From Acidobacteriota bacterium (lineage in GTDB: Bacteria > Acidobacteriota > Vicinamibacteria > Vicinamibacterales > UBA2999), in assembly GCA_046727855.1 (NCBI GenBank), contig JBKPDL010000027.1:1-63567 (forward strand): a stretch of 63,567 nt of DNA, in the 5' to 3' direction. Positions 15,227 through 49,904 of the stretch are shown here, in pieces. The notes beneath the pieces were generated by a model. The model saw only the letters and a program-made list of their open reading frames with translations, did no database searches and had not been told where the DNA came from. The translations under genes and the position numbers were made by a program. The first letter of the stretch is position 1. Every line of letters begins with the position of its first letter.

Positions 15227-15327
15227 CCAAATCCGCAAATCCGCAAATCTCCAAATCCCCAAATCTCCAAATTTGCAAATCTCTAAATCAGCTCCAAATC
15301 TCCAAATCTCAACATCTCCAGATTCGG
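15227..15327. repeat. octamer (CTCCAAAT) array element, right-arm-only copy 1
   Basis: Degenerate 8-bp tandem units ending CCAGATTCGG. Confidence 0.9.
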
Positions 15328-15336
15328 AGCTCACCA

Positions 15337-15540
15337 TCAGTGCACAATCACATCATCTTGATCTTCAACTTCCAGGTGGGGAACGTCGAGTGTGCGCACG
15401 GCCTCGATCGCCTGCACCATGGCGGCATCTACTTTCGATCCGCGCTGCGCCGTCCGCAGTTCGTGACGTAATTGTCTGAGCGCGCGCAGCACCCGTGATC
15501 GGTCAAATCGTTGTCCCTGACAGTGATCGCAAAAGCTCAT
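15337..15540 (-). CDS. small hypothetical protein with N-terminal CxxC
   Basis: MSFCDHCQG...; GAGG upstream of ATG 15540. Confidence 0.55.
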   Translation of the reverse strand: MSFCDHCQGQRFDRSRVLRALRQLRHELRTAQRGSKVDAAMVQAIEAVRTLDVPHLEVEDQDDVIVH

Positions 15541-15603
15541 GCGTATAACCTCAATGCTTTCCGCAGAATACTTCGTTAGGTTGCCCACTCGCAGAACGCC
15601 GCG

Positions 15604-16083
15604 TCAAGCGTCGCCACATCGTCTGTTCGGGCATCTGGTGGGCGGAAATGGCTTCCTGAATGTAAAGACGTCCGGCGACGGTCCACGCTGCTTGAGAAGC
15701 TCCAAGCGCTCAATCGCTTCCGCGACGGTTGGAATGTGGCCGACCGGAATCCACCAGAGTGCGAGGATTGGACCATCGATCGGCTCAAACCACTGCCTTC
15801 TGTCGCGAAGCGGCGCGGCGTGCGCGCTGCGGTATACGAACTGCTGAAGCGTTTCGAGTGACTCCCATACCGACATGTTGATGGCCATACGTTCGTCGCC
15901 AGCGAAAGGTCGGATCCCCATGGCGCTGCCCTGCTCGGTCTGAAGTCGCCACACGAATCCCGGTGTGGCATCGGCCAGCGCGTTGATCACGTCCAGTTGG
16001 TTGCGGAAGCCGTCCATGAGCGGGTCTTCGAGCGGCGCTCGGATGCGTCCGATGTTCACCTGTGCGATACGGAAACGCGTCAC
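15604..16083 (-). CDS. DUF3291 family protein
   Basis: IAQVNIG, PGFVWRLQ, NMSVWESLE, LWWIPVGHIP. Confidence 0.9.
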   Translation of the reverse strand: MTRFRIAQVNIGRIRAPLEDPLMDGFRNQLDVINALADATPGFVWRLQTEQGSAMGIRPFAGDERMAINMSVWESLETLQQFVYRSAHAAPLRDRRQWFEPIDGPILALWWIPVGHIPTVAEAIERLELLKQRGPSPDVFTFRKPFPPTRCPNRRCGDA

Positions 16084-16100
16084 CAGTTCCTCCGTTTCTG

Positions 16101-16472
16101 CTACTCATCAGAGGCTAATACGCGTTCGACCGCTGCGGCAATCGCCTTGATTTCCGTTGGCCGGGTGACGACGTGGAATCCGCGCTGGTGAAGCTCCGCA
16201 GCTGACACGGAGCCCAGGGCGGTGATGACGACGACACGCGCGGACGGCGCCAGCGCGCGTATCTCATCGAGGACCGTTTCGGGATCGCGTAGCCCTCGGA
16301 GATCGAGAACGACCGCGCGCGGTTTTGCCTGTGCCTGGAAATAACGGCGTGGCACTGGCCAACCCTCGGCCGCGTTGGCTCTGTACCCGTTCTCGATTAG
16401 TTGTGCGACCAGGAGTGCGTGGAGCGGCCACTCAGGGGCTATCACCAGGACGTCGGGGCGCGATACCTGCAC
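16101..16472 (-). CDS. atypical receiver-domain-like protein
   Basis: CheY-like pattern (PRAVVLDL, VVVITA, TRP) with degenerate acidic pocket and Lys. Confidence 0.55.
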   Translation of the reverse strand: MQVSRPDVLVIAPEWPLHALLVAQLIENGYRANAAEGWPVPRRYFQAQAKPRAVVLDLRGLRDPETVLDEIRALAPSARVVVITALGSVSAAELHQRGFHVVTRPTEIKAIAAAVERVLASDE

Positions 16473-16501
16473 AGTCGAAACATACCGCCGCTCGCCGCCC
16501 G

Positions 16502-16525
16502 GAAAAGGGGTCAGACCCCCTTTTC
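16502..16525. repeat. AAAAGGGGTCAGACCCCTTTT-type REP-like palindrome
   Basis: Palindrome; related copies at 16978, 43299, 62127. Confidence 0.85.
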
Positions 16526-16910
16526 ACCTCGCGAAAGGCGCGCGAGCACTGCCGCTGCCACCAGGGCCACAAGAAACGCTGGAGCCGCTGTGACGATCGG
16601 CCATACGACGAGTGCGAGGAGCCAGGCGGGACGAATGGTCGACGCGGCCGAGAGCGAATGAAGCATGCCTGCCACGGCAAGAGCCATCGCGCCGATCGCC
16701 ACAGCGGATGCGGCGTGCAGCGCCGTCTGAGCTCCTGCGACGCGTCTCCCATTGCGCGATCATGGGTTGACGCCCGCGTCAGGGTCGATCCTGCCGGTCC
16801 GTGCTATGCGGTATCCAGACGTTTGAGCCGCGCAAGGCTGCCACCAACGACGCCGATGCCAACGTGGCCGAGGTAAGCCACCTGCACGATCGCCGTGCCG
16901 AGAATTCCCA
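16511..16910 (-). pseudogene. decayed membrane-protein gene between two palindromes
   Basis: Hydrophobic segments in two frames (LGILGTAIVQVAYLG..; AVAIGAMALAVAGML..) separated by stops. Confidence 0.4.
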
Positions 16911-16977
16911 AGGCTGCGAGCCGCGGAGATTACGATCACTGCGATCGCTGCCGCTAGGGAAGGCTGTGCGTCGCGCG

Positions 16978-17001
16978 GAAAAGGGGTTACACCGCTTTTT
17001 C
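16978..17001. repeat. degenerate AAAAGGGG...TTTT REP-like palindrome
   Basis: GAAAAGGGGTTACACCGCTTTTTC. Confidence 0.65.
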
Positions 17002-17011
17002 GCAGCGCGAT

Positions 17012-17785: not shown

Positions 17786-17790
17786 TTTAG

Positions 17791-18228: not shown

Positions 18229-18430
18229 AACTGCGTGTCCCCTGCCTCGCGCGCGTCTCGGCTCGATCGCCAGCCACCTCGCCGTACCGAAACACGCCGC
18301 CTGTTGAGTGTGAACATGGTTGCTCCTTGGAGTTTTGGTGAACCGTCGAGGTGTGTGCGCATCACCTAACAGAGCGTCGCCGGACTCCAGCGATGGTTGC
18401 ACAGCAATGCGTTTTATGCACGTCCCACGT

Positions 18431-19714
18431 TCAGGCGATCGGTAGCTCTCGCGTCTCAGGCGCGACAATGACCGTGACGATGGTCACGAGCGCCATGGCA
18501 ATGACGTACGAGGCCAGCGCGCCGCGTCCATATGGGAGCAGCGCCGTAGCAATGAATGGTGAGAGGCCACCCGCAATTACGGACGCGAGCTGCGATCCAA
18601 GCGACGCGCCGCTGTAACGCACGCGCGTGCCAAAGAGCTCTGACAGGAACGCAGCCTGCGGTCCGTACATTGGTGAATGCGCAAAGACAAGTGCCACGAA
18701 AAGCGCAAGCCACACGAGCGGCGCTGAGCCGGTGTCGAGCAGCCAGAACAACGGATACGCGAAGAGTGCCGTGACACAGGCGCCAAACAGGTAAACGGGC
18801 CGGCGACCAAACCGATCCGACAACGATCCGCAAAACGGAATTGCGGCCAGTGCCGCCGCCGCACCAATGAGAATGCCGTTCAACAACGTCTGGCGCGAGA
18901 GACCCGCTCGCTGTGTGCCGTAGACGAGAACGAACACCGTATAGATGTAGAACGCGCCGTTTTCTGCCAGTCGGAGGCCCATTGCAACCAGCACTTCTTT
19001 GCGGTGGTTGCGAAGCACCTCGACAACCGGTCGCCGCGTCTCGCTTCTTGTCTCCTTCATACGCAAGAACAGCGGTGTTTCCAGAATCCGCAACCGGATC
19101 ACGAGGCCGACACCGACGAGCGCGATACTGACGAGAAAGGGAACGCGCCATCCCCACGAGAGGAACTGATCTTGTGGCAAGCGCGCGAACTGGGCGAACA
19201 CCGCAGTCGAGACAAGCAGTCCCGCCGGCACGCCCATCTGCGGCAAGCTTCCGTAGAATCCACGCGCGTTTGCAGGCGCGTGTTCCACCGCCATCAGCAC
19301 TGCACCGCCCCACTCGCCGCCGACGCCAAAGCCCTGAGCGAGACGGAGCGCCACGAGACACACAGCGGCCCACGGTCCGATCTGGTCATAGGTCGGCAAC
19401 AGGCCGATGGCAAACGTCGCCACGCCCATGATGGTCAGTGTGAGCACGAGCATCGACTTCCGTCCGATTCGGTCGCCGTAGTGTCCAATGATGATGCCGC
19501 CAATGGGTCGCGCAATGAAGCCGACGGCGTACGTGCCAAACGCCGCCAGCGTTCCGGCCAATGGATCGAACGTCGGGAAGTACAATCGGTTGAACACAAG
19601 AGCCGCGGCGGTGCCGTAGAGAAAGAAGTCGTACCACTCGATCGTGGTGCCGACGAGGCTCGCGAGCGCCACCAGGCGGATCGAACTCTTCTTCCCCTCT
19701 GTGGTGTTGACCAT
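18431..19714 (-). CDS. MFS transporter, metabolite:H+ symporter family (ShiA-like)
   Basis: GTTIEWYDFFLY, GDRIGRK, GGEWGGA, WGWRVPF. Confidence 0.92.
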   Translation of the reverse strand: MVNTTEGKKSSIRLVALASLVGTTIEWYDFFLYGTAAALVFNRLYFPTFDPLAGTLAAFGTYAVGFIARPIGGIIIGHYGDRIGRKSMLVLTLTIMGVATFAIGLLPTYDQIGPWAAVCLVALRLAQGFGVGGEWGGAVLMAVEHAPANARGFYGSLPQMGVPAGLLVSTAVFAQFARLPQDQFLSWGWRVPFLVSIALVGVGLVIRLRILETPLFLRMKETRSETRRPVVEVLRNHRKEVLVAMGLRLAENGAFYIYTVFVLVYGTQRAGLSRQTLLNGILIGAAAALAAIPFCGSLSDRFGRRPVYLFGACVTALFAYPLFWLLDTGSAPLVWLALFVALVFAHSPMYGPQAAFLSELFGTRVRYSGASLGSQLASVIAGGLSPFIATALLPYGRGALASYVIAMALVTIVTVIVAPETRELPIA

Positions 19715-19922
19715 TGTGGCCGTGACCGTTATATCCGGAATAGAGTGCGGCCAGCGAGAGGTTCAATTCGCGCACCGCGCGCCCCGATCGCTCGATCGCG
19801 CGCTGGGAATCGCGCGACCGCGCATTTATCACGCGACACGCTCAACAACGCGGCTTCCGAACCGCCAACGCCTCGAGAACGTCCTTCTCCGATTTTTGCA
19901 GGCGCGATGTGCCCGCTGATGA

Positions 19923-20385
19923 TTACCGCACGCCGCAGAGGCGTGATAGGCGATCACGCGCCATCGGCCGTCGCGCTTCGCGTAGGTCTTCGTGAAGCGC
20001 CAATCATCGTCCCGCACACGTCCGTTGAAGTCGCGCGTTCGCTGCAACCGTCCGATCGCCACCGCCGTCTCGCGATGAACTTTCACGTGCAACTCCGACG
20101 TCTCACATCGCGTGATCCTGGCGCGGCCCGAGCGCAAAGACGCCGAGAATATCGGCCTTGCTCATCACCGGCATCTCCGGAACGCTGACGAGCAGGTCGT
20201 CCGCGCAGAGCATCGAGTACGGCGACGTCGCCGCGCAGGTGAGCGTCGTTCCATGCGCGCTCGAGACGCGCAAACTCTCCGGTGTCCTCGGCCCTGGCGG
20301 TCTGAGAATCGGCGGAGAAAATGGCCGAGATCGACAACACCGCGAGCAAACTGACGACGAACAGTCGGATCGACGGCAGTTGCAT
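19923..20385 (-). pseudogene. frameshifted DUF4440/NTF2-like secreted protein
   Basis: LERAWNDAH / ADDLLVSVPEMPVMSK / WRFTKTY..WRVIAYHAS in successive frames; shifts near 20207 and 20138. Confidence 0.75.
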
Positions 20386-20406
20386 TACGGCAGCCGCATG
20401 TCGGAC

Positions 20407-20559
20407 TTAGCCGCCGCGTTTAAAAAACTGCACAGCACGTTCGTGCTTCATGGCGGCTGCACGCGTTGTAAACGTGCCAAGATTACGCCGCTTGCCTGTC
20501 TTGGGATCCTTCTTGCGCGAATAAAGGCGATATCGCCCGTCTTTCAGTTTCCGAATCAT
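20407..20559 (-). CDS. 50-aa basic small protein
   Basis: Hand translation MIRKLKDGRYRLYSRKKDPKTGKRRNLGTFTTRAAAMKHERAVQFFKRGG; below ORF-track cutoff; resembles a recurrent conserved hypothetical. Confidence 0.75.
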   Translation of the reverse strand: MIRKLKDGRYRLYSRKKDPKTGKRRNLGTFTTRAAAMKHERAVQFFKRGG

Positions 20560-20644
20560 GACGAATATCTCAGTTTCGGGCCAGATCGACGGCGATCGGC
20601 TCTAAACTGCGCGCAATCCAGTGCGGGAGATTCTGCCGCACTCA

Positions 20645-20683
20645 TTGCCGCTCACCGCTGCCGCGATGCAGCCGATGTTAGAC
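20645..20683 (-). other. degenerate, internally deleted attC-like site
   Basis: Minus strand GTCTAAC-ATCGG-CTGCA...GGTGAGCGGCAA; shares boxes with 44411 and 48425 sites; R' missing. Confidence 0.45.
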
Positions 20684-20775
20684 CGCTTCACTGCGGGGCG
20701 TTGCAAATATGCCAACGACCCGACTATGGCGCAACCGTCCCCTGCCTCTGTTCTTCGATCTCGCGTCAGCACGAG

Positions 20776-21639
20776 CTAGCGCGTCTTCTGTCTCGCCCAT
20801 TCAGCGAGAAAGGCCTTCTCGGCTGAGGCAACGTAGGTCTTGTAACCCTCCGGGTCGATGAAGGCCGTCATGTCGCCGCCCAGCATCTTCTGGTATTTCG
20901 CTTCCATGTCGAAATAACTGCCATGAGCGCCGAGTGGGATATCGGCCGGCAGCGACTTCAGCACCTGGAAGGTCCGCTCGTAGTCCGTGGCGATTTGCGG
21001 GTACTGCGGATTGTCCACCAACTTGAAACCGGGGTTCACAGCCGTGCCGCCGATGATCACCACGTTATGCGCTTTGCCGCCCACTCTGGCCTGCATCGTG
21101 AACGTGGTGCATCCCTTCGTATGGCCGGGCGTGACACGCGCGGTGAGGACGGCATCGCCAAGGGTGACATGGTCGCCGTCGTGGAGAACTCGATCGACCT
21201 TGGTGGGCGGATAGTGCGTGGAGGGATCGCCGGCATAGTGGAAGTCGGTCTTGCCACCCGATTCGACAACCGACACATCTCCGTCCATCACCATGTACCG
21301 AGCGCCCGTCAGTTTCTTGATCGTGGCGCTGGCCGCGGCGTGATCCCAGTGCGACTGATTTATCACCAGGATTTTGATATCACTGAACTTGAACCCAAGC
21401 TTCTCGATGCTGGCGCGAATAAGCGGAACGTTCGCTTCCAGATCGCTGTTGATCAGAATGTGGCCCTGCGACGTGGTGATCAGATAGTTCGCGAGGCCTC
21501 TGCTTCCGACGTAATAAAGGTTGTCGGCGATGCGAAACGGCGCAAAGGGCTCCGTCCAGCTTGGATCGTTCTGCGCCTGCGCCGTTTGCGCGCACGCGAG
21601 GCCGATGATGGCCAATAGAAGGCACGTTTGCTTCGACAT
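20776..21639 (-). CDS. subclass B3 metallo-beta-lactamase, Gln116 variant
   Basis: Signal peptide; PFRIADNLYYVG, QSHWDH, PGHTKG, LGAH; start ATG 21639. Confidence 0.9.
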   Translation of the reverse strand: MSKQTCLLLAIIGLACAQTAQAQNDPSWTEPFAPFRIADNLYYVGSRGLANYLITTSQGHILINSDLEANVPLIRASIEKLGFKFSDIKILVINQSHWDHAAASATIKKLTGARYMVMDGDVSVVESGGKTDFHYAGDPSTHYPPTKVDRVLHDGDHVTLGDAVLTARVTPGHTKGCTTFTMQARVGGKAHNVVIIGGTAVNPGFKLVDNPQYPQIATDYERTFQVLKSLPADIPLGAHGSYFDMEAKYQKMLGGDMTAFIDPEGYKTYVASAEKAFLAEWARQKTR

Positions 21640-21752
21640 GCGGCGATTGTAACGTCCAACGGTATCTAATCTCGCCGGCCGATGACCCCGGTGGACCCGG
21701 CGCGCGAAAGAGCCGGTGAAGCCTGGCGGAGCGAAGGATGAAGGACAGGAAC

Positions 21753-21808
21753 TACCGGGACGGAGGTCGCTAGCCGGGACGGAGGTCGCTAGCGGGGATG
21801 GAGGTCGC
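21753..21808. repeat. 19-bp tandem repeat x3, copy B
   Basis: TAGC(C/G)GGGA(C/T)GGAGGTCGC units. Confidence 0.9.
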
Positions 21809-21960
21809 TCACTCACGGGGTGCGCAGGTCGCCTACGCGCACGCGCGGCGCGTCGTGACGCGCCATCACATTTCGCTCGCAGCGGTTGGCTCCCACCAAT
21901 TAGAATGCGTCGCTTGAGTTGTTCGACAACCTGGTTTGTGATGGCCAGCAGGGAGGGGCA

Positions 21961-22446
21961 ATGATTCCAAGACTTGCGCGCGGCATGGTGATTCTCGCTC
22001 CGGCGGTGCTCGTGGCCGGGGTCCTGGCGGCGGCACAAACGTCGGATCCGTTCGTCGGCACCTGGAGGCTGAACGTCGCCAAGAGCAAGTACACTCCAGG
22101 TCCAGCGCCGAAAAGCATCACGTCGACCTACGAGGCCGCCGGAAAGGGCTACACGGTATCCGTCAAGAACGAGCCCGCCTCGGGTCCGGTGCAGCAGTAT
22201 TCCTACACGACCGCGCTTGACGGCAAGGATGTGCCGGTAACCGGCAACAATCCGAACGCCGACATGATTGCCGTGAAGCGAATCGACGCGAACACGCTCG
22301 AAATTGTCAACAAGAAGGGCGGCAAGGTCACCACCACACAAAAACAAGTCGTCTCGGCCGATGGCAAAACGCGAACGGTGACGACGACCGGCACCGATGC
22401 GCAGGGCCAAAAGGTCAACAACGTCACGGTGTTCGAGAAGCAATAA
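21961..22446 (+). CDS. secreted lipocalin-like beta-barrel hypothetical protein
   Basis: Signal peptide; DPFVGTWRLNVAKS, VSADGKTRT, VFEKQ; GGAGG RBS. Confidence 0.8.
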   Translation: MIPRLARGMVILAPAVLVAGVLAAAQTSDPFVGTWRLNVAKSKYTPGPAPKSITSTYEAAGKGYTVSVKNEPASGPVQQYSYTTALDGKDVPVTGNNPNADMIAVKRIDANTLEIVNKKGGKVTTTQKQVVSADGKTRTVTTTGTDAQGQKVNNVTVFEKQ

Positions 22447-22827
22447 TCGCGCAGCGGCGGTTGACCTTTGAGTTGTTGATCGCCGAACGGGCGGGGCGGG
22501 CCAGGCGCCGCGATGCGGGCTGCCGTCATCAACGGGTGGCGCTGTTCAGCCTGGAGCGCCACTGCACAACGTGTGGCGTTCGAGTGTCTGGGCGAAAGCC
22601 AAGCCGCTGGCCGCATCGTGGACAACAGGCATGAGCCGCAAGTCCACCGCCGCCAGGAAATTGCCTCATCCCACACCCGACATACGGCGCTGTCGGGTCC
22701 GGAACCAGTGTGATGTCCGTGCTGCCGCGGTAGCCGGAGGTGTTACGTCAGCGGACTTTACCCCTCCTTTTAAATGCACTCCTCTTCCCAACGCTCACTT
22801 GAGTTGATGACGCCACCGCCGCGAGAA

Positions 22828-22926
22828 CGGGACGGAGGTTGCTAGCCGAGACGACTTGCCTCGCCGAAGCTCGCGGCAAATCGCGAGGCGAGCGAAGGCG
22901 GGAGGTCGCTAGCCGAGACGGAGGTC
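22828..22926. repeat. 19-bp tandem repeat x3, copy C, second unit interrupted by a 48-bp palindromic insert (22853-22900)
   Basis: TAGCCGAGAC|insert|GGAGGTCGC. Confidence 0.85.
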
Positions 22927-22936
22927 AATGTCGAAC

Positions 22937-26044: not shown

Positions 26045-26114
26045 CTAAATTTTGCCAAATCCCTAAATCGCCAAATCAACTCCAATTCTCCAGATCTCGA
26101 GATCTCCAGATTCC
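26045..26114. repeat. octamer array element, right-arm-only copy 2
   Basis: Units ending CTCCAGATTCC. Confidence 0.85.
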
Positions 26115-26125: not shown

Positions 26126-26632
26126 CTACGCCATTAGTCGCTCGTAATAGACCAGCGGATTGCCTCGATAACCTACTCTTCCGCGTTCGGCGTACCCGCA
26201 CTTGGCATAGAAACCGCCTGCGCCGGCAAGCGAATCGTATGCGTCGAGGCGAATCGCGTCTGCCGGCCACGCCTCCGCGATGCGGTGCGCGTCGGCCAGT
26301 GCGGCGCGACCGAGACCTTGCCGCTGTTTGCCGACGCGGACGGCCATTCCAGTTAGATACAGAGGTCGCGCGACGGGCGTGAAGTACATGACATCGATCG
26401 CCCACGGTTTCTGGGTCTGCAGTCGCAGCGATGTGAGGATGCGTCCTCCATAGCGGCCTACTCGCACGCGACTCCGCCCGGGCACCAGTTCGAGGCCGCG
26501 GCCGAATGTGTCCCTTGACCAGTGCCCTTCGCCGAACCGGGCGGTGAGATCGGCGGCCACGGCGGCGTGCAGCGTGGTCAACTCCTCGAAATCGTCGGTT
26601 TCGGCATCAGAAAAGGTTAGCTCCGCAGGCAC
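26126..26632 (-). CDS. GNAT family N-acetyltransferase
   Basis: MAVRVGKQRQGLG, FYAKCGY; GTG start with GGAGGAG RBS. Confidence 0.85.
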   Translation of the reverse strand: MPAELTFSDAETDDFEELTTLHAAVAADLTARFGEGHWSRDTFGRGLELVPGRSRVRVGRYGGRILTSLRLQTQKPWAIDVMYFTPVARPLYLTGMAVRVGKQRQGLGRAALADAHRIAEAWPADAIRLDAYDSLAGAGGFYAKCGYAERGRVGYRGNPLVYYERLMA

Positions 26633-27082
26633 ACCTACGACTCCTCCGAGGCATTCATCACAAAGCGAGTTCCACACCCTACTTCGATGTGAAATACATC
26701 GCCTGCGCCATGGTGCGACCGAGCATAGCGTCATTTAGATCTGGGAAGCAGCGGCGCAATTCGTTCTTTGCGCGCCGCTCGGCCAGGTGCCCTTCAGCAC
26801 TCGATCGGCCAGCGACCACGCGACGTGCTCGATCTCGCGACACCGCGTTGCCCATGCGCTGAACAGCTCGGTGGACGCGTCGGGGAAGCCCTCCCTCCAT
26901 CGCTCCTCAATCGGAATCGAGTGGCGGGACGAGGGCGGCATTGTAACGCCGCCGCGGGTCGTTGACGCACGCTGGCGCGCGTCGACATTATGCCCTTCCG
27001 CCGAACAAGTACGCCGCCCAGAAGTGCGGAAAAGTCTGCTTCACTCCGTCGAAGACATTGGCGCCGTACGGCGGCTATCATC

Positions 27083-32525: not shown

Positions 32526-32737
32526 TCGCGAATTTGGAGGTTTGGAGGGTTTGGAGATTTGGAGTTGATTTGGAAATTTATCAATTCGGCGATTGGCTGA
32601 TTGGCAAATCTTCAAATCGCCAAATCCCCAAATCCCAAATCCCCAAATCTCCAAATTTTCAAATCGCCAAATCTCGAGATCGCCAAATCGCCAAATCGAC
32701 TCCAAATCTCCAAATCGTCAAGTCTCCAAATTCGCGA
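32526..32737. repeat. octamer inverted-array element, complete copy 3
   Basis: Perfect 14-bp inverted termini TCGCGAATTTGGAG / CTCCAAATTCGCGA; ATTTGGAG arm followed by CTCCAAAT arm. Confidence 0.92.
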
Positions 32738-32823
32738 TCCTTCCAAATTCGCTGTCTGGTCACTGCCCATGCTACGATGCCGATGCCCTTCTTCCGCGCA
32801 CCAATCCTTTGTTGGAGACCACC

Positions 32824-34272
32824 ATGACCGAGCAGACCGTAGCGTCCTTGCAGCAGCGCCTCCGCGGGCGTTTGATTCAGCCGACCGATGCCGACTACGA
32901 CGCCGCCCGCGCGCTGTACAACGGAATGATTGACAAGAAACCGCGCCTGATCGTGCGCTGCGCGAACGTCGCGGACGTGATTGCGGCCGTGAACTTCACC
33001 CGCGAGGAGGGCCTGCTCCTGGCGATTCGCGGCGGCGGTCACAGCGGCCCCGGTCTTGGCAGCTGCGACAACGGGTTGGTGATCGATCTGTCGGCGATGA
33101 AAAGCGTGCGCGTCGATCCGAACACGCGCACGGTTCGCGTCGATCCAGGTTGCACGTCGGGTGACGTCGACCACGCGACGCACGCCTTCGGTTTGGCGGT
33201 GCCATTTGGCATCGTGTCCACCACCGGCGTCGCAGGGCTGACGCTGGGCGGCGGCACTGGTTACCTCACTCGCAAGCACGGCCTCACCATCGACAACTTG
33301 ATCGAAGCCGACGTTGTCCTCGCCGACGGGAGCTTCGTGACGACAAACGCGGACACGCATCCCGATCTGTTCTGGGCGTTGCGCGGCGGCGGGGGCAATT
33401 TCGGCGTGGTGACGAGCTTCGTCTTCCGCGCGCATCCAGTGGCCGCGGTTTACGCGGGCCCAATCTTTTGGGACGCGAAGAACGACGGTACGACCGTGAT
33501 GCGGACCTACCGCGACTTCATGGCGAGCGCGCCGGAGGATCTCGGTATCTTCGTCGGCCTCAAAACCGTACCACCGATGGATCCGTTCCCACGCGAGCAC
33601 TGGGGCAAACGCGCGTGCGCCATCATCGGCGCCTACAACGGATCCGCCGCGGACGGACAGCGTGCCATGCAGCCGCTGCTCGAACAGTTACCGGCGCCGC
33701 TCTTCAACTGGATGAGCGAGATACCGTTCCCGGCGATGCAGTCACTCTTCGATCCGTTCTTCCCGAAAGGCCTGCAGTGGTACTGGAAGGGCGACTTCGT
33801 CAAGACGTTGCCGGACGAAGCGATCGACACGCATATCGCACAAGCCGCAAATGCACCAAGCGATCTCTGTTTGATGCATCTCTATCCGATTGACGGTGCG
33901 GTGCACTCCGTCGCCAAGGACGCCACCGCATGGGACGCGCGCGATGCGCGGTGGTCGATGGTGGTCGCCGCGATCGATCCGGATCCCGCGAAAGCAGTGC
34001 CGTTGACAACGTGGGGCCGCGGCTATTGGAAGGCCGTGCACCCGTTCAACCTCGGCGGTGCCTACATCAATTTCCTGATGGACGACGAGGCCCAGGGTCG
34101 CGTGCAGGCGAGTTACGGAGACAACTACGAGCGGCTCACCGAGGTGAAGACGAACTACGATCCAGCGAACTTGTTCCGAGTGAACCAGAACATCGCGCCC
34201 GCGGTACCCTCGTCCGCCGATCGCCGCGCCGCTACCGGACAAGCGGACGCCCGTCCCGGAGCGACGGCATAG
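32824..34272 (+). CDS. FAD-binding oxidoreductase, berberine-bridge-enzyme family
   Basis: RGGGHS covalent-FAD His, DLFWALRGGGGNFGVVT, YDPANLFRVNQNI. Confidence 0.92.
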   Translation: MTEQTVASLQQRLRGRLIQPTDADYDAARALYNGMIDKKPRLIVRCANVADVIAAVNFTREEGLLLAIRGGGHSGPGLGSCDNGLVIDLSAMKSVRVDPNTRTVRVDPGCTSGDVDHATHAFGLAVPFGIVSTTGVAGLTLGGGTGYLTRKHGLTIDNLIEADVVLADGSFVTTNADTHPDLFWALRGGGGNFGVVTSFVFRAHPVAAVYAGPIFWDAKNDGTTVMRTYRDFMASAPEDLGIFVGLKTVPPMDPFPREHWGKRACAIIGAYNGSAADGQRAMQPLLEQLPAPLFNWMSEIPFPAMQSLFDPFFPKGLQWYWKGDFVKTLPDEAIDTHIAQAANAPSDLCLMHLYPIDGAVHSVAKDATAWDARDARWSMVVAAIDPDPAKAVPLTTWGRGYWKAVHPFNLGGAYINFLMDDEAQGRVQASYGDNYERLTEVKTNYDPANLFRVNQNIAPAVPSSADRRAATGQADARPGATA

Positions 34273-34286
34273 AGGGTTGCATCACC

Positions 34287-34440
34287 CGAATCTGGGGATT
34301 TGGAGGAACTTGGAGATTTGGAGCTGATTTGGAGATTTGCAGATTCCTGGATTTTGCGATTGCTAAATCTCCAAATCGTCAATCACCAAATCGCCAGATC
34401 TGCTCCAAATCTCCAGCTCTCCAAACCCCAAATTCACGCG
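34287..34440. repeat. octamer inverted-array element, complete copy 4
   Basis: GAATCTGGGG ... CCCCAAATTC termini with opposed arms. Confidence 0.9.
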
Positions 34441-34446: not shown

Positions 34447-35046
34447 TTACTGTCCCGGTATCATGATGTGCGCGGTCGATGTGCCCGCATTCATAATCCA
34501 CGCACCACCTTGCTTGGGGTTGTCCGGCAGGCCGGTGGACTGAGTGGTGGCGCCCGGCACTGCGATCATGGCGTGGTGCCGTTGGGCACGTTCGCGGTCC
34601 GGGCCCGCGACGCTGTGCCACACAGACCCGTACTCAGGCTTCACACGCGTCCCGTCCTTTTCCATCGCGTTGAGCATCTCCTCGGATTTCTTCCTATCAC
34701 CCGTCGCCTCGGCCTTCAGATTCTGAGCGACGCGATCGAGGTTGGCGACGCTCGTGCACTGAACGGAGAACGGCTGCTGTTGAGGGAATCCGGACCGGTC
34801 ATAGCAGACGAGGCGGTTCGTGCCTTTTCTAAGCGTCTCGTAGGTGTTGTCTGGTTTCCATTTGATAACGGTTGCCTGATCCTTCTGATTCGCAGGCGCG
34901 GCGACGAGCGCCTTATCTACGTCGGCCTGCGACGCGCCTGGTTCGAGCTCCGGCGGTGCCGCAGCAGTACCGCCGCCGCGTCCTTGCGCGAGCAAGACGC
35001 TGGAAACCGCCAGGATATTGATCACCAACAGGGCAGTGCGCTTCAT
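34447..35046 (-). CDS. secreted hypothetical protein
   Basis: Signal peptide; GGAGG RBS; C-terminal WIMNAGTSTAHIMIPG. Confidence 0.75.
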   Translation of the reverse strand: MKRTALLVINILAVSSVLLAQGRGGGTAAAPPELEPGASQADVDKALVAAPANQKDQATVIKWKPDNTYETLRKGTNRLVCYDRSGFPQQQPFSVQCTSVANLDRVAQNLKAEATGDRKKSEEMLNAMEKDGTRVKPEYGSVWHSVAGPDRERAQRHHAMIAVPGATTQSTGLPDNPKQGGAWIMNAGTSTAHIMIPGQ

Positions 35047-35189
35047 ATGGACCTCCATGCCGTAAGGCACTGCGCTTATTTTACGCAGTCGACCGGCCGT
35101 CTGAAGCAGTACCGGCAACGTCGGTGACCGTCCGCTGTCCGCGATGACGCAGGCACGTCAAACGCACAAGAACTAGAATCACCTCCACG

Positions 35190-36916: not shown

Positions 36917-39043
36917 ATGCGTCACCGCCACAATTCGTTGTCTCTGCGCGCGCGCGTCGTCCTCGTCGTTACGCTCACGCTCTTCGCCGGCGGCGCGGCG
37001 CCACAAACGGCGCTCCTGCCCGAGAAAGGGACGGAGATTCTGTGGGACACGTATGGCATCCCGCACATCTTCGCGCCCGATCACCCGAGTCTCTTTTATG
37101 CCTACGGCTACGCGCAGATGGAGGGGCACGCCGAGCTGCTGGTGCGGCTCTACGCGCAGGCGCGCGGGCGCGGCGCGGAGTTCTACGGCGACGGCTACCT
37201 CGACAGCGATCGCTGGGTGCGCACGAACGGCATTCCCGACAAGGCAAAACAGTGGGCGGCGCAGCAGAGTCCGGAGTTCGGCGGCCTGATTCGCGCGTTT
37301 GCGGCGGGCTTGAACGCGTGGGCGGCAAAGAACCAGACCTCACTGACCGCGGCCGCGAGGGCCGTGCTGCCGCTCACGCCCGAGGACGTGTACGCGCATG
37401 GATTGCGCATCATTCATTACGACTGGCTCACGAGCGAGCAGAACGTCTACACCAAGATGCGTCGGGAGGAGGTGGAGACGCACGGCTCGAACGGCTGGGC
37501 GATCGGCCCCGCGAAAAGCGCCTCCGGCAATGCGATGCTGCTGAGCAACTCGCACTTGCCATGGTCCGACAGCGACACCTATTTCGAGGTGCAGCTCACG
37601 GCGCCAGGGGTGACGTCGTACGGCGCGGTCTGGGTGGGGTTCCCGGTGCTGCGGCAGTGTTTCACCGAGTTTGTGGCGTGGACCCAGACGACCAACGGCC
37701 CGACCGGGGCGGACGTGTATCGCCTGACGCTCGAGGGCGATGGCTACGTGCTCGACGGCAAGACGCGGGCGTTCGAGGTCGAGAACCAGATCATCAAAGT
37801 GCGTCAGGCTGACGGGTCGCTGCGTGACGTGCCGCACACGATTCGCCGGTCGGTGCACGGACCGGTGTTCTCGGAACGCCGCGGTGTCAGGGTTGCTCTC
37901 CGCGTGGTCGCGGCCGATCGCCCGAAGATGTTCGAGCAGTTCTGGCGCATGGGTCTCGCGAAAAACCTCGAAGAGTGGAAGAACGCCATGCGGATGCAGC
38001 AGTTGCCGATCTTCCACACCATGTACGCCGATCGTGACGGCCACATCATGTATGTCTACAACGCGGCGCCGCCGGTGCGGACGCATGGTGATCACGCGTA
38101 TTGGAACGGTGTCATTCCAGGCGACCGCTCGGATCTGATCGCATCCGACAAGATCGTGCCGTTCGATCAGCTGCCGCAGGTGCTCGATCCGCCGACCGGC
38201 TGGGTGCAGAACTGCAACGACTCGCCGTGGACGTCAACCTATCCGATGCAGATCGATCCGGCGAAGTTCGCGTCCTACATCGCGCCGCCGCCGGGTCACA
38301 CGCAGCGATCGCAGCGCAGCATCCGCCTGCTGTCGGAGTCCGGAAAGATCGCGTTGGCGGATCTGAAGGGCATGAAGCTCTCCACGCGCAGCGAAATCGC
38401 CGATCATTTCGTGGACGATCTGGCCGCGGCCGCGAGGGGCAGCGCGTCCGCGAAGGCAAAGGAAGCGGCGGAGATCCTCGCGAAGTGGGATCGCCAGGGC
38501 GAGACGACGAGCGACGGCGCGTTTCTCTTCTGGCGCTTCATCACCGCCGCGGGCAATAACTTCCAGAACATCGGCGGCTACGCGGTGAGGCCGGACGTCC
38601 GCCAGCCATTGACGACGCCGCGCGGCTTTGCCGATCCGGCGAAGGCCGTGGCGCTGCTCGACGCCGAAGCGCGGCGTCTCGAAGCCGATTACGACACGCT
38701 GCACGTGATCTGGGGCGACGTCATCCGCCTGCGTCGCGGCAATCTCGACCTGCCCGGCAACGGCGTCCCCGGCACGCTCGGCGGCATCAGGACGGTCAGC
38801 ACCGGCCCCTTCGTGAACGGCAAGACGCAAATTCAGGGCGGCGACACGTTCTACGCGGTGATCGAATTCCAGAAGAACGGCCCGCCCATCGGCGAGGCGC
38901 TCCTCGGCTACGGCAACTGGTCGCGCGTGGGCTCGAAGCACGTGGACGATCAGCTCGCGCTGGCGTCGCAGAAGAAGATGCGACCGATTGTGCGCAACCG
39001 GGAAGCGATTGAGAAGAATCTGGAGAGCCGGACGACTTTCTGA
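36917..39043 (+). CDS. penicillin acylase family Ntn-hydrolase (glutaryl-7-ACA acylase-like)
   Basis: WDTYGIPHI, G|SNGWAIGP autocleavage Ser, SHLPW, QNCN. Confidence 0.92.
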   Translation: MRHRHNSLSLRARVVLVVTLTLFAGGAAPQTALLPEKGTEILWDTYGIPHIFAPDHPSLFYAYGYAQMEGHAELLVRLYAQARGRGAEFYGDGYLDSDRWVRTNGIPDKAKQWAAQQSPEFGGLIRAFAAGLNAWAAKNQTSLTAAARAVLPLTPEDVYAHGLRIIHYDWLTSEQNVYTKMRREEVETHGSNGWAIGPAKSASGNAMLLSNSHLPWSDSDTYFEVQLTAPGVTSYGAVWVGFPVLRQCFTEFVAWTQTTNGPTGADVYRLTLEGDGYVLDGKTRAFEVENQIIKVRQADGSLRDVPHTIRRSVHGPVFSERRGVRVALRVVAADRPKMFEQFWRMGLAKNLEEWKNAMRMQQLPIFHTMYADRDGHIMYVYNAAPPVRTHGDHAYWNGVIPGDRSDLIASDKIVPFDQLPQVLDPPTGWVQNCNDSPWTSTYPMQIDPAKFASYIAPPPGHTQRSQRSIRLLSESGKIALADLKGMKLSTRSEIADHFVDDLAAAARGSASAKAKEAAEILAKWDRQGETTSDGAFLFWRFITAAGNNFQNIGGYAVRPDVRQPLTTPRGFADPAKAVALLDAEARRLEADYDTLHVIWGDVIRLRRGNLDLPGNGVPGTLGGIRTVSTGPFVNGKTQIQGGDTFYAVIEFQKNGPPIGEALLGYGNWSRVGSKHVDDQLALASQKKMRPIVRNREAIEKNLESRTTF

Positions 39044-39079
39044 GCTGGTCCAAACGCGTCGGTAGTGCGCGCTGGCGCG

Positions 39080-39207
39080 CGCGAATCTGGAGATTTGGTG
39101 ATTTTGAGATTTGGATATTTTGTGAATTTGGCGATTGCCAAATTTCCAGATTTGCAAATCGCCAAATCGTCTCCAATTCTCCAGATCGCCAACTCTCCAA
39201 ATTCGCG
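39080..39207. repeat. octamer inverted-array element, complete copy 5
   Basis: CGCGAATCTGGAGA ... TCTCCAAATTCGCG. Confidence 0.9.
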
Positions 39208-39256: not shown

Positions 39257-40522
39257 ATGACGGGCACATTGCTTTCGCGGCGCTCAATCCTGCACGGTGT
39301 CGCAGCGGCCGTGGCGCCGCTCGCGTTTGGCACGCGGGCGCACGCGGCACGGCAAACATCGAGTGGCGAGATCGATCCGCTGAACACTGACGTGCTCCCG
39401 CGCGGCATCCGCTCGCGCTTCGTCAACGGGGTGAACGGTCTGCGGATGCACGTGCTCGAGGCCGGCTACGAGACGCCCGGCCGGCCAGGGGTCCTTTTGA
39501 TTCACGGCTTTCCCGAGCTCGCCTACAGCTGGCGCCACGTGATGGTACCGCTCGCCTCGGCGGGCTATCACGTGTTCGCGCCCGACATGCGCGGCTACGG
39601 CCGGACCACTCCCGCGCCGGTCGATTACGACGCCGACCTGCGCCCGTTTGGAACCGTGAACCGGATCAGGGACATGCTCGCGCTCGTGTCGGCGATGGGC
39701 CATCGCTCGCTCGCGGCCGTGTTCGGGCACGACATGGGATCACCGTTGGCGGGCTGGTGCGCGCTCGCGCGCCCCGAAATCTTTCGCGCGGTCGTGATGA
39801 TGAGCGCGCCGTTCGGCGGCGCACCCGTGCTGCCGTTCAACACAGCGAACGCTGCAGCCGCGCCCGCGCCACGGACATCGGCGTCGCCCGAGGCGGTTTA
39901 CGAGGAGCTCGCGAAGCTCTCGCCGCCACGCAAGCACTACCAGCGCTATTACCAAACACGCGAGGCGAACGCGAACATGTGGCATCCGGCGCAGGGCCTG
40001 CACGCGTTCCTGCGCGCCTACTACCACATGAAGAGCGCCGACTGGAAACAGAACCATCCCCGTCCGCTTGCCGCGCGCACCGCCACCGAGTGGGCGAAGC
40101 TGCCGCGCTATTACGTCATGGATCTCGACAAGGGGATGGCGGAGCAGGTGGCCGCCGAGATGCCGACGCCGGCGGAGGTCGCCGCCAATCGTTGGCTGCC
40201 CGATTCAGAACTTCGCGTCTACACCGAGGAGTATGGCCGCACGGGCTTTCAGGGCGGCCTCAATGGGTATCGCGGTAGCCCTGGGAACGAGGATCTGCAG
40301 CTCTTTGCGGGAAGGACTATCGACGTGCCATCCAGCTTCATGAGCGGGAAGCAGGATTGGGGCGTGTATCAAAACCCGGGGGCACTCGAACGGCTCGAGA
40401 AGAGCATCACCACGACGTACCGCGGCACGCACTTGATAGACGGCGCCGGGCATTGGGTGCAGCAGGAGCAGCCCGAGGAGCTCACGCGGTTACTGCTCGA
40501 TTTCCTGCGTCGCGTTTCCTGA
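39257..40522 (+). CDS. Tat-signal alpha/beta hydrolase (epoxide hydrolase-like)
   Basis: SRRSIL signal; HGFPE, GHDMG, GAGHWVQQE. Confidence 0.9.
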   Translation: MTGTLLSRRSILHGVAAAVAPLAFGTRAHAARQTSSGEIDPLNTDVLPRGIRSRFVNGVNGLRMHVLEAGYETPGRPGVLLIHGFPELAYSWRHVMVPLASAGYHVFAPDMRGYGRTTPAPVDYDADLRPFGTVNRIRDMLALVSAMGHRSLAAVFGHDMGSPLAGWCALARPEIFRAVVMMSAPFGGAPVLPFNTANAAAAPAPRTSASPEAVYEELAKLSPPRKHYQRYYQTREANANMWHPAQGLHAFLRAYYHMKSADWKQNHPRPLAARTATEWAKLPRYYVMDLDKGMAEQVAAEMPTPAEVAANRWLPDSELRVYTEEYGRTGFQGGLNGYRGSPGNEDLQLFAGRTIDVPSSFMSGKQDWGVYQNPGALERLEKSITTTYRGTHLIDGAGHWVQQEQPEELTRLLLDFLRRVS

Positions 40523-40593
40523 GGGAGCGGCCGCCTCTTCAGTGTACCCTTCTCGGCCATAGCCGGCTGAAAAGCCCGGAACCGTTGAGCTCC

Positions 40594-41296: not shown

Positions 41297-41310
41297 GGGA
41301 CCAGATTACT

Positions 41311-41422
41311 CGCGAATCTGGTGGAGATTTAGCAAATTTGGCGATCGCGAAATTTTCAAATCTCCAAATCTCCACCTCTCCAAATCTTCAAATCTCCACA
41401 TCGCCACCTCGCCAAATTCGCG
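41311..41422. repeat. octamer inverted-array element, complete copy 6
   Basis: CGCGAATCTGG ... CCAAATTCGCG. Confidence 0.9.
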
Positions 41423-43143: not shown

Positions 43144-43196
43144 CGGGACGGAGGTCCCTAGCGGGGACGGAGGTCGCTAGCGGGGACGGAGGTCGC
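43144..43196. repeat. 19-bp tandem repeat x3, copy D
   Basis: Two perfect TAGCGGGGACGGAGGTCGC units plus one partial variant. Confidence 0.9.
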
Positions 43197-44391: not shown

Positions 44392-44410
44392 ACGGTCGAA
44401 TAACTGCTCC

Positions 44411-44510: not shown

Positions 44511-44528
44511 AGCAGGCGTTACTGGCAC

Positions 44529-45810: not shown

Positions 45811-46175
45811 TTGCTAGTGAAGAGTTTCGGCCAACGCGGCGAATGGTTCGTCCGCGAGGTGCGGCGCAGTTTCGGCTGGTCGTGCACGATTCTTGTGCTC
45901 GAATGGGCGCGGTCGCCGAAGACGTCCAAACACGGGTACAAAACGAACGGCGGGGATTCGCCCCGCCGTTGCAACGTCCGCGCTTCATGCCGAGGCGGGG
46001 CTCACTGCGGTCGCACCAGCACGGGGCAAGGTGCGTTCACTCCCGTCAACGCAGAGATGAGAGCGAGTTTTAGATGCTCTCGTCGCCTCCGCGATCCACA
46101 CCCCGCGAGCGCCATCGACGAAGATTCCCGCGGTGGAGCGCCAACATACCCGAACTCCCGACGCGCACCGGGCGA

Positions 46176-46847: not shown

Positions 46848-46938
46848 GCATCCCTCCAGCTGCAGCGTGGGAATGCCTAGCCCACGCACTGGCAGCGAAC
46901 CTGCAAACCTGCAACCGTGCGCACCTTAGAATACGTCC

Positions 46939-48024: not shown

Positions 48025-48075
48025 CGTTTCGAGGGTCCACCTTCCGGGTTCAGGGTTCCAGGTTTACGCCGCGCG

Positions 48076-48375
48076 CTACCCGCGAACCACCGCGCCAAGT
48101 GGCATGGGATGGACCTCGAAGCTAAACCCCGCGCCCGATTGGATGGTCGGATCGCTGTCGGTAAAGGCGCGGGCTGCGTCGGCGGTTTCGAAGTCGACGA
48201 TGCCTACGCCGAAGGCGCCGGCGGGATCAGCTACGAGGCCAAAGAAGATGACGTTGCCTCGCTGCATCCACTCGCGCCAGTAAACCGCGTGTGCTTGCAT
48301 CAGCTGTTGCTCGGCGGGGGTCATGTCCTGGGCAAAGGTCGGGCGCGGCGCTATCAGCTTGCAAAAGAAGTTCAT
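48076..48375 (-). CDS. YciI family protein
   Basis: PRPTF, H..YW, FGLVADP.G, DP motif; GAGG RBS. Confidence 0.85.
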   Translation of the reverse strand: MNFFCKLIAPRPTFAQDMTPAEQQLMQAHAVYWREWMQRGNVIFFGLVADPAGAFGVGIVDFETADAARAFTDSDPTIQSGAGFSFEVHPMPLGAVVRG

Positions 48376-48424
48376 GTCGCCTCTGTACGTGATGGCTATG
48401 CTCGTCCATATTTCAAAACGACCG

Positions 48425-48539
48425 CGGTAACGTCTTGCCGCTCACCAGCGAGCGGCGCTGTCTTGTAACTCGAGCCACACTGAGCTGAGGGCTATTTCAA
48501 ACATCGCGCGCCGCTCGTCGCGTGCAGCGGCTCTCAGGC
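48425..48539 (-). other. integron attC-like site
   Basis: GCCTGAG-AG-CCGCT(G)CAC-GCG(A)CGAGCGGCGC...GCGCCGCTCGCTG-GTGAGCGG-CAAGAC-GTTACCG; begins 10 nt after the stop of 48550-49080. Confidence 0.75.
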
Positions 48540-48549
48540 GGCACTGGCT

Positions 48550-49080
48550 TCAGCGGCGACCAGCGTAGCGCTCCTGATGCGTCTCGCCCTCGAGATTATT
48601 AGTGTCTAAAGGTCTTTCCTCGATCAACTCCTCTGGATCGACAGTGTGAAAAGAGAGCATTCCCCAAGGTTCTGGCCCAACGAACAGCCGGTGCCACGTC
48701 GAAGGCGGAATGCTGACCCAGCGCCGTTCGAGGCTGTCGCGTTCGGTACTCGTGAGCGGATGTGAGCGCCAGTTGGATCCGTCTCGTAACTCAAACGTTC
48801 CACTCCCAGCCAGGGACAACGACCGCTGGTGGCTGATCGGATGTCGCTCCGCCCCTGTTGCCGCCAGAGCGCGAATCACGAAGATCCAGCAGGAACGGAT
48901 GCTCGCCGGAAAACCATCCTCGAAGGCGCTGAGAGGGACGATCTCCCAGGCCATGAGTTTTGTCGAGGTGTCGAGCTGCTGAACCACCCGTCGGAGCGTT
49001 TCAGTTATGGTTGCCGCGGCGGAGTCTGTGCGGACAACTTCATTCAGCGCGGGAAGTACCGGGTCCTGGGCAACGTTCAT
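48550..49080 (-). CDS. hypothetical cupin-like protein (cassette-like)
   Basis: ERHP.SHQ, SIPPSTWH His pattern. Confidence 0.65.
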   Translation of the reverse strand: MNVAQDPVLPALNEVVRTDSAAATITETLRRVVQQLDTSTKLMAWEIVPLSAFEDGFPASIRSCWIFVIRALAATGAERHPISHQRSLSLAGSGTFELRDGSNWRSHPLTSTERDSLERRWVSIPPSTWHRLFVGPEPWGMLSFHTVDPEELIEERPLDTNNLEGETHQERYAGRR

Positions 49081-49279
49081 TTGAGGTTACCTGTTGAGGG
49101 GCCGCGAGCAGCGATCACGATTGTCTCAGATCGCGCAGCGTGCTCGACGGTTCTTTGCAGGAATGTAGGTTCAGCTTCTCGCAGAGCCGCTGTCGCGGAT
49201 CGCATCTCTCACGTCCCGCCGTGAGGCAAGTAGCAGCGCCGTAAAGAATGACAACACGTTGCGTCGCATGATGACCGCC

Positions 49280-49675
49280 GCGATCATGAGCGCGGCGCCT
49301 TTCGCGTTTTCGCCTTGCGTCACGAACGCGAATCGATCACCGGCGGGATGGAACGAGGGCAGCGGCGTTGTGGGAGCAAACTCGAAGGCGGGATCGCGAC
49401 TCCAGATTTTGACCCACGGTTTCCGCTGCAGCGGATCGCTTGTGATACACGACGCGCGTGCCGTCGGGAGACCACGCCGCCGATCGAATGTCCCCTGCCG
49501 GACCGCGCCGGCCGTCGGAATATTGAACGCCGCGCTCGTCCCCGTCCTTGCGGAGATAGGCAACGACATCGCCGCGCAGCACCGACGGATTGAATTTCAC
49601 GCCAGCGCCGACCGGCGACGGCGCGCCAATCTCGTTGATACCGCGGACACGTACGTAATAGACGCCTGGCGCGCG
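49280..49675 (-). pseudogene. mosaic of gene fragments (FN3-like piece + TolB-like propeller piece)
   Basis: APGVYYVRVRGINEIG abutting AAWSPDGTRVVYHK, then a frame change to PSFHPAGDRFAF. Confidence 0.55.
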
Positions 49676-49812
49676 AGTCCGCCGTTCAATGAGGTGCAGG
49701 TGGTGTTCCCGTGAGTGACCACCATGGGCCGGAGACGCATTTTGCCGGCGGGCGGAGGCGGCGGGGAAGTCGCGTACAAACGAACGGCGGGGAATCGCCC
49801 CGCCGTCATCAT

Positions 49813-49904
49813 CAAATCTCCAAATCTCCAAATCCAAAGATTGGCAAATCGCCAAATCTCCAAATCACCTCCAAATCACCAGATCGCCAAATCTCCAGAT
49901 TCGG
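49813..49904. repeat. octamer array element, right-arm-only copy 7, abutting the rpoC stop
   Basis: Units ending CTCCAGATTCGG, 3 nt from the rpoC stop codon. Confidence 0.9.

Follow-up and report, generated by a model that had tools for sequence, protein, structure and literature searches.

Bacterial MITEs (miniature inverted-repeat transposable elements), such as ERIC, Correia and RUP sequences, are intergenic, possess terminal inverted repeats (TIRs) and are present in some genomes and absent from their relatives. The STRR heptamers of cyanobacteria are short tandem words, abundant in intergenic sequence near gene boundaries. Several phyla are rich in short tandem repeats that are anchored at stop codons, for which, to our knowledge, neither a role nor a manner of spread has been established. 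Here we describe such repeats in the genome of a soil Acidobacteriota bacterium (GenBank assembly GCA_046727855.1, termed G000; 5.22 Mb in 207 contigs, 93.6% complete), as found in contig JBKPDL010000027.1 (C27), the whole of which, 63,567 nucleotides (nt) in length, is referred to as the window. An initial annotation, based on the sequence of the window, had noted seven copies of a dispersed, inverted array of octamers. These are members of a family of gene-end tandem-repeat elements, which, as far as the available text of the relevant report extends, has its closest described relative in the GGGAATC heptamer class of Xanthomonas (PMC4692102). The octamer family and its register, in which four units are followed by a 3-nt shift (4+3), are new; the class of gene-end repeats was already known.

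According to the accessible part of that report, GGGAATC repeats (Rehm et al. 2015, PMC4692102) show a preference for four units and include 70-75 inverted pairs that could form stem-loops. Their G-rich strand is the coding strand within 50 bp after a stop codon, or overlapping it, and is also found on the non-coding strand just upstream of open reading frames (ORFs). They are depleted between divergent ORFs, and their position is kept across related species while their length and sequence vary; in the same portion of the text, no link to insertion sequence (IS) elements is reported and a G-quadruplex (G4) is proposed. REP, BIME and REPIN sequences, including the GTAG- and CGTC-tagged REPs, are described in the available text of Di Nocera et al. 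(2013, PMC3733652) as high-copy extragenic palindromes, often with oppositely oriented units folding into larger hairpins; most lie downstream of genes, where the ORFs on either side are unidirectional or convergent, and a role as RNA elements is supposed for them; some families have no known transposase. The TAACTGA repeats of Beggiatoaceae, as characterized in the accessible sections of MacGregor (2015, PMC4679880), are direct repeats, one indirect case excepted, and in most cases are immediately upstream of start codons.

Compared with the parts of PMC4692102 available to us, the octamers share with the GGGAATC heptamers of Xanthomonas and the GGGGA(C/T)T heptamers of Nostoc a dispersed, mostly non-coding distribution of short tandem units. 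As in GGGAATC, the G-rich strand is stop-proximal and on the coding strand, four units are preferred, inverted pairs are formed, gaps between divergent genes are depleted and position is conserved. They differ in having an 8-nt unit with GG rather than GGG tracts, making a G4 unlikely, a defined GAAT/ATTC terminus, often accompanied by further TCA-bearing words, and a 3-nt spacer on the inner side of the four-unit block, followed by more units, as well as in the occurrence of solo 34-nt modules, a clean en-bloc indel and their host phylum, Acidobacteriota. As every trait but the spacer matches, the octamers are filed as a new family of the Xanthomonas-type class. With respect to the REPs of PMC3733652, again as far as the accessible text goes, they lack a GTAG or CGTC tag, have arms of tandem octamers, and flank no RAYT gene. 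They resemble MITEs in their size (57-178 nt), TIRs, intergenic location and presence or absence between relatives, and differ from them in having no autonomous partner, internal tandem units and single outward arms. Finally, like STRR and TAACTGA repeats, they are intergenic tandem words by gene boundaries with a suspected post-transcriptional role (available text of PMC4679880), from which they are distinguished by unit and taxa; the analogy with STRR originally drawn is apt in kind. No match to a described repeat family was found in print: the octamer strings appear only in unrelated primers, the 16-mers nowhere, and nothing on the family was retrieved in a literature search that did not cover supplements.

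The family was delineated using an arm profile constructed from 80 seeds, all having the register, with a profile-free scan of run lengths as an independent check. In the genome 158 arms reach the terminus. These include 51 pairs with termini 57-178 nt apart, the other arms being single or having a degenerate partner, and together they occupy 88 of 4245 intergenic gaps, seven of these 88 lying in the window, which represents 1.2% of the genome. Read from the inside outward, the consensus arm is ...ATCTCCAAAT, a spacer Y-N-N, four units and then TC(A). The units of the terminal block have the consensus CTCCAAAT, CTCCA[G/C/A]AT, CTC[C/G]A[G/A]AT and CTCCA[G/A]AT; the core ATCTCCA/TGGAGAT is the invariant part, and the unit variants are position-specific within the block. 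Past the terminal TC is found ACG, GGAG, GCG or TGCGAAG, a further TCA being common, and the inverted termini of an element are CGYGAATYTGGAG ... CTCCARATTCRCG. The unit of construction is the outward-pointing arm, consisting of inner units, a variable 3-nt spacer, four units and TC(A). The smallest complete element is 92 nt long and has two 34-nt modules around an 18-nt palindrome, from which each is separated by 3 nt; solo 34-nt modules also exist (e.g. C110:2812, C172:6767, C184:14060 and C33:1930).

Exactly four in-phase units precede the first break in 99 of 135 arms, with a 3-nt shift coming next in 85. Without recourse to the profile, in-phase runs of two, three, four, five, six and seven units were observed 160, 54, 54, eight, two and three times respectively, with 42 of the 54 four-unit runs ending in the TC terminus; the reversed genome, used as a control, contained only two runs of two. 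The termini and the four-unit register recur in the same form in a sister species, G001, where 26 of 40 arms possess the 4+3 arrangement. Register and run lengths across the genome uphold the original view that the family is discrete and dispersed, that its inverted termini are defined and its register fixed, and that it is no plain slippage microsatellite.

Within the window, CTCCAAAT occurs 23 times against 1.0 expected, a count reached in none of 100 shuffles, and Tandem Repeats Finder (TRF) identifies period-8 arrays at all seven places. Sequence reading, gene calls and base composition agree that each copy lies between called genes and is AT-richer than its surroundings, with a GC content of 41-46% against 62.9% for the genome. 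The copies and their parts are as follows:

Copy 1, 15227..15327, plus strand: single C-strand arm of about 12 units, with spacer CAG at 15289-15291
Copy 1 terminal module, 15292-15325, plus strand: four units ending in ATTC, then GGAGCTCA
Copy 2, 26045..26113, plus strand: single C-strand arm with spacer CAA and terminal module at 26080-26113
Copy 3, 32526..32735, no strand assigned: two-armed, the left terminus being the G of GAAT at 32530
Copy 3 right arm, 32605-32733: long, with spacer CGA and four-unit module at 32700-32733
Copy 4, 34282..34437, no strand assigned: two-armed, with termini at 34288 and 34435
Copy 5, 39077..39206, no strand assigned: two-armed, with termini at 39083 and 39204
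Copy 6, 41308..41421, no strand assigned: short left arm (terminus 41314) and right arm with terminus at 41419
Copy 7, 49813..49907, plus strand: single arm with spacer CAC and terminal module at 49869-49902

As first described, four of these are two-armed and three (copies 1, 2 and 7) consist of a right arm only. On reading the sequence, the two-armed copies have a G-strand arm of ATTTGGAG-like units, a short centre and then a C-strand arm of CTCCAAAT-like units, closed by inverted ends of the form CG(C/N)GAAT(C/T)TGG ... CCAAATTC(G/A)CG. The distance of four octamers from terminus to 3-nt shift, claimed for six of the seven right arms, was likewise seen by eye in six, with spacers CAG, CAA, CGA, CTG, CGT and CAC, and the left-hand arms of both copy 3 and copy 4 mirror it, bar an extra base or two; the exception is copy 6, the right arm of which has about nine in-phase units and no 3-nt spacer. 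Copy 3 also has an additional partial terminus, CCAAATTCGC, at about 32743-32752.

The genes around the copies are ordinary. Copy 2 is directed towards the 3' end of the minus-strand gene at 26126-26677, which encodes a GNAT acetyltransferase, and the right arm of copy 3 faces the start of a FAD/BBE oxidase gene (32809-34272). Copy 4 fills the convergent gap between the stop codon of this oxidase (34270-34272) and a gene at 34447-35118 on the minus strand, and copy 5 is found between a penicillin-amidase gene (stop at 39043) and an alpha/beta-hydrolase gene (start at about 39257). The terminal module of copy 7 is followed by GGAGA, which adjoins the stop codon of the minus-strand gene rpoC (TCA at 49908-49910), such that the copy sits between this stop and a GC-rich terminator-like hairpin at about 49752-49775. 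At the orthologous site of G004, a member of the same genus, the same hairpin is beside the stop with no array between; interposed as it is here, the array would be within the rpoC 3' untranslated region (UTR). A hairpin of this type, AACGGCGGGG-N4-5-CCCCGCCGTT with a T-rich tail, occurs twice in the window (45946-45970 and about 49748-49775), and a GGGGTCAGACCCC-type hairpin recurs elsewhere in the genome. A scan of 14 genes of the window, among them 12 that adjoin the seven copies, showed metabolic or housekeeping genes throughout and, as had been anticipated, no cognate enzyme. The suggested analogy with arrays beside IVP/Avd-like four-helix-bundle genes did not hold, as PF05635 has no match in the 93.6%-complete genome, nor in these 14 genes.

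Genome-wide, the arms are associated with the ends of genes. At E<1e-5 there are 136 arms, 100 of them directed at a gene's 3' end and 35 at a 5' end; a stop codon lies between -20 and +30 nt from the terminus in 84. The terminal TCA is itself the stop codon of the neighbouring gene (TGA on the gene strand) in 26 arms, and in 11 arms the stop is a second TCA, 6 nt further out; genes adjoining arms end in TGA in 56 of 84 cases, compared to 50.6% of genes in the genome. Arms are found in 42 of 697 convergent gaps (6.0%), 42 of 2851 tandem gaps (1.5%) and four of 697 divergent gaps (0.6%). Convergent placement accounts for 20 of the 38 classified pairs; where a convergent gap has a paired element (n=20), this takes up a median of 85% of the gap, leaving 20 nt. 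Read in the sense of the gene, a stop codon is followed by AUCUGGAGAU..., and hence the GGAG-rich strand lies in the 3' UTR of that gene; given this placement, the RNA of the adjacent gene would read a stop codon and then (UGGAGAUY)n.

The distribution of the family among relatives was assessed with a 29-nt pattern, allowing up to three mismatches, for which the reversed pattern gave no matches; all the genomes compared are draft assemblies resembling metagenome-assembled genomes (MAGs). The numbers of matches were:

G000, this genome: 52
G001, same genus: 91
G002, same genus: 8
G004, same genus: 1
G003, same genus: 0
36 other genomes of the same family and order: 0

The family is restricted to the genus. 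Four metagenome relatives, as well as G002 and G004, have this unit and the GAAT terminus in long in-phase arrays lacking the spacer. A strict 34-nt pattern, searched against 185,579 species genomes, matched only the record of G001 and three loci in two Planctomycetota MAGs; in metagenomes it matched 18 loci, of which four are the relatives with long in-phase arrays. The Planctomycetota loci and most metagenome matches are exact (ATTTGGAG)4 runs inside FecR-like ORFs, and were rejected as family members, being coding sequence and a different phenomenon. In the Planctomycetota MAGs and one metagenome, (ATTTGGAG)4, again of four units, precedes other short repeats and has conserved coding flanks. 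Upstream of a tRNA gene in one metagenome relative, the flanks of which are 83-89% identical, lies (CTGCAAAT)8(CTCCAAAT)6; G000 has unrelated GC-rich sequence in its place (C26:36420-36820).

Comparison of seven G000 stretches with their G001 counterparts, also read as stretches, provides a view of how the elements change. Octamer arms are present in both genomes at 13 of 18 sites with both flanks matched, often with different numbers of arms or units: one G001 arm has five extra units, another a 16-nt x5 expansion, and a triple tandem element was also observed. At the site of copy 1, G001 has two left arms and one right arm, and G003 and G004 have no element; at that of copy 4, the G001 element has conserved ends and a changed centre; and the element at the site of copy 7 is present in G001 and absent from G002 and G004. 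One site is cleanly empty: 106 nt (G000 C117:17939-18030 plus short extensions) are missing from G001, leaving ...GAGCGGTG^ATCGTTACC; ATC is found at both ends, with four extra bases blurring the junction of this single site. Other repeats take the place of two further G000 elements in G001: a TCAGC/GCTGA heptamer inverted array, similar in length, at one site and GTAG-REP-like hairpins at the other. In the reverse case, G000 has REP-like hairpins in place of one G001 arm. Whole elements are thus subject to indel or replacement, and the predicted presence/absence polymorphism is evident in the one clean empty site and three replacements.

Position is conserved between the two species and the sequence of the arms is scrambled, with no signal of orthology. 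In the flanking genes, identity between G000 and G001 at third codon positions is 80.6%, and the 10 nt just outside the arms are more alike in orthologous (0.60) than non-orthologous (0.29) comparisons (p=0.0003). By contrast, the identity of the 34-nt module is 0.739 between orthologous arm pairs (n=18) and 0.712 between non-orthologous ones (p=0.25); both comparisons omit two arm pairs in a near-identical tract. The variable columns are saturated, the most variable being identical in 20% of 20 orthologous pairs, and switch only among states known from other units, as expected from concerted evolution through unit slippage and ectopic conversion. Turnover of arm sequence exceeds that of the neighbouring unique DNA.

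The near-identical tract extends over about 3.2 kb (G000 C181 about 19700-22936 against G001 C166) and is 99.3-100% identical, compared with 80-93% around it; it could represent a recent exchange or an artefact of binning or assembly, and two of its roughly six differences are in the centre of an octamer element. In G001, the orthologue of the alpha/beta-hydrolase is out of frame with the terminal TGA of an element, runs about eight codons into the octamer arm and ends at a TAG from a mutated unit (L014:2740-2890); the G000 hydrolase has no element there and its stop is TGA (window 40480-40560). Between 20000 and 50000 the window is, relative to G001, a mosaic made up of parts of contigs C217, C91, C72 and C47, in which segments the size of genes have been gained, lost or moved; six other contigs are collinear with G001.

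On balance we lean towards the elements being transcribed 3'-UTR or hairpin structures, kept by concerted evolution and occasionally copied en bloc. They would be transcribed with the upstream gene and may act at the RNA level in protecting the mRNA end or insulating neighbouring transcription units, a role paralleling those proposed for REP elements and the Xanthomonas GGGAATC repeats. Two back-to-back arms would make a long imperfect hairpin over most of the gap, and persistence in the DNA may be ensured by unit slippage and ectopic conversion between arms, with copying to new gaps now and then. The 39 well-scored pairs are predicted to fold as end-to-end hairpins, with a median minimum free energy of -57 kcal/mol at 128 nt and a z score of about -9.7 relative to shuffles. 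Spacer complementarity is 0.256 within the same element and 0.329 between different elements; the spacers do not match, and would therefore leave an internal loop at a fixed place in the hairpin. No Rfam family matches the elements, tRNA-Trp alone reaching threshold in the window.

Several observations weigh against this interpretation. There is no compensatory signal: arm complementarity is 0.635 within the same element and 0.640 between different elements (p=0.70, n=39), so that the arm co-variation sought following the initial annotation was absent across the 39 elements, and folding is equally good in native and chimeric arm pairs (p=0.69). It is therefore the shared consensus that brings about the pairing. 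Nor are the elements canonical intrinsic terminators: the stems, of 42% GC, end in AUUCRCG and lack a U run, and terminator-like sites total 16 where 15.5 are expected, with one trivial match in an element. Single arms cannot make the long hairpin, and a hairpin role explains neither why the unit count is fixed at four nor why the spacer varies. Of 24 RNA runs, each containing at most 0.11 of the sampled words, the four that were aligned cover only conserved rpoC stretches of other organisms, at 88-95% likeness, and none of these four bridges the element. The gene calls, moreover, were made with a crude caller of our own that is exact for stops and approximate for starts.

An unlikely explanation, to which we nonetheless attach appreciable weight, is that the family is a selfish non-autonomous transposon, similar to a MITE or REPIN, with CGYGAATYTGGAG termini cut and pasted by a transposase that is encoded elsewhere or has been lost; the location at gene ends would then reflect target choice or the purging of harmful insertions. 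Such an origin would accord with the defined inverted termini, the clean empty site in G001, the solo 34-nt modules and the concentration of occupied gaps in the window. The derived 4+3 register, found on about 100 loci in two species and absent from their relatives G002 and G004, means that sequence has been copied between loci. A single-master history would likewise give no co-variation of arms, and that null result therefore leaves room for en-bloc transposition. However, no target-site duplication is established, the one empty site having at most an ATC repeat; none of the listed arm pairs 400-6000 nt apart encloses a transposase, Pfam hits to the seven genes in the three intervals scanned including the ordinary Peptidase_M15, TonB_C, hydrolase, glutamine cyclotransferase and TerC; and the two Y1_Tnp (PF01797) genes (C204:2655-2990 and C92:10278-10622) are flanked by other repeats or none, so that no link with RAYT genes emerged. 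Also weighing against a transposon are the 13 of 18 sites in common with G001 and the arms, which occur singly and always point outward; the terminal extensions on an element's two arms are of concordant type in 17 of 39 cases, where 13.5 are expected, which is not significant (p=0.12). Of the mobile element envisaged in the initial annotation, the polymorphism between genomes is retained, and MITE-like mobility remains conjectural. Very unlikely is the hypothesis that the elements are recombination sites bounding movable blocks of genes, either attC-like or REP-mediated, even though this would explain the mosaic window: synteny between G000 and G001 does break at the left terminus of copy 5, at copy 6 and at the post-hydrolase element of G001, and at several places elements bracket single genes or operons, but none of 15 element sites in the six other syntenic contigs coincides with a break, the mostly convergent placement is unlike that of integron cassettes, and no link with an integrase, for which no test was made, was seen.

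The sharp cap at four in-phase units has instead been considered as the ruler of a binding array or non-B structure, recognised by a multimeric binder or forming a four-tract G-quadruplex like that proposed for GGGAATC. We find this doubtful, although the position-specific unit variants around an invariant ATCTCCA/TGGAGAT core would suit it, as would the four-unit preference shared with GGGAATC in the available text of PMC4692102. The TGGAGATY units contain GG only, with no tract of three or more G, making a stable G4 unlikely; an 8-bp spacing is not helical phasing; relatives retain the unit with no four-unit block; and no candidate protein emerged, CsrA (PF02599) having no match in the 93.6%-complete genome. 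The idea of a CsrA sponge, suggested by the GGA motifs, was rejected on the same grounds. Replication slippage alone, making the arrays ordinary microsatellites, is the least credible of the explanations. It would account for the variation in unit number between orthologues and for the long in-phase arrays of G002 and the metagenome relatives, but not for runs that stop at four, with five or more units in just 13 of 281, nor for the conservation of terminus, spacer position and unit-specific variants over about 150 arms in two species. A further conjecture, in our estimation rather improbable, is that the arms are not grown in place, being copies of an approximately 34-nt, four-unit template installed at gene boundaries by some machinery. 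It would make sense of the fixed ruler and the solo modules, of the derived 4+3 variant having spread over about 100 loci in two species, and of orthologous arms resembling each other no more than any two arms do, although their flanks do. The 3-nt spacer would in that event be a joining scar of untemplated or junction bases, and the family a new kind of written gene-end mark, the copies of which are continually overwritten.

Whichever explanation applies, the family offers sharp handles in the form of its terminus, four-unit ruler with junction spacer, solo modules, en-bloc indel and replacement by other families. Strain-resolved data on it could separate slippage, ectopic conversion and true mobility, and the 92-nt cassette or 34-nt module is compact enough for direct tests on mRNA ends. 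Even as tolerated junk, the arrays would be of value to annotation, as they supply or displace stop codons (26 genes here) and break assemblies.

The genome contains several gene-end repeat families of the same class as the octamer. Array families identified by TRF include AAAGTTC (94), AAATCTCC (67), AACGAAG (43), ACATCGCC (29) and AGATCAGGG (20). Other inverted tandem arrays in the window (58480-58607, 59105-59190, 60494-60580 and 62338-62368) include (TCAGGTA)n facing (TACCTGA)n, (GAACGAA/GAACTAA)n with a short inverted arm, and a perfect (AGTTCAA)7 with an inverted TTGAACT a few bases on; AGTTCAA runs extend to 14 units, and also have a bump at four. GTAG-tagged REP-like hairpins are abundant in G000, with 115 copies of GTAGCGCGGA and 194 of GCGGACC..GGTCCGC, and swap gaps with the octamers between the sister species (L039 about 6781-6880; L055 about 2770-2915). 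The Y1_Tnp gene on C204 is bracketed by the inverted pair GGGCCTGCCCCATT / AATGGGGCAGGCCCC, which suggests that it is a putative RAYT with its own repeat family. A 19-nt tandem repeat, GGGACGGAGGTCGCTAGCG or a rotation of it, is also found in about three copies at each of three places in the window (295-355, 21755-21809 and 43145-43196).

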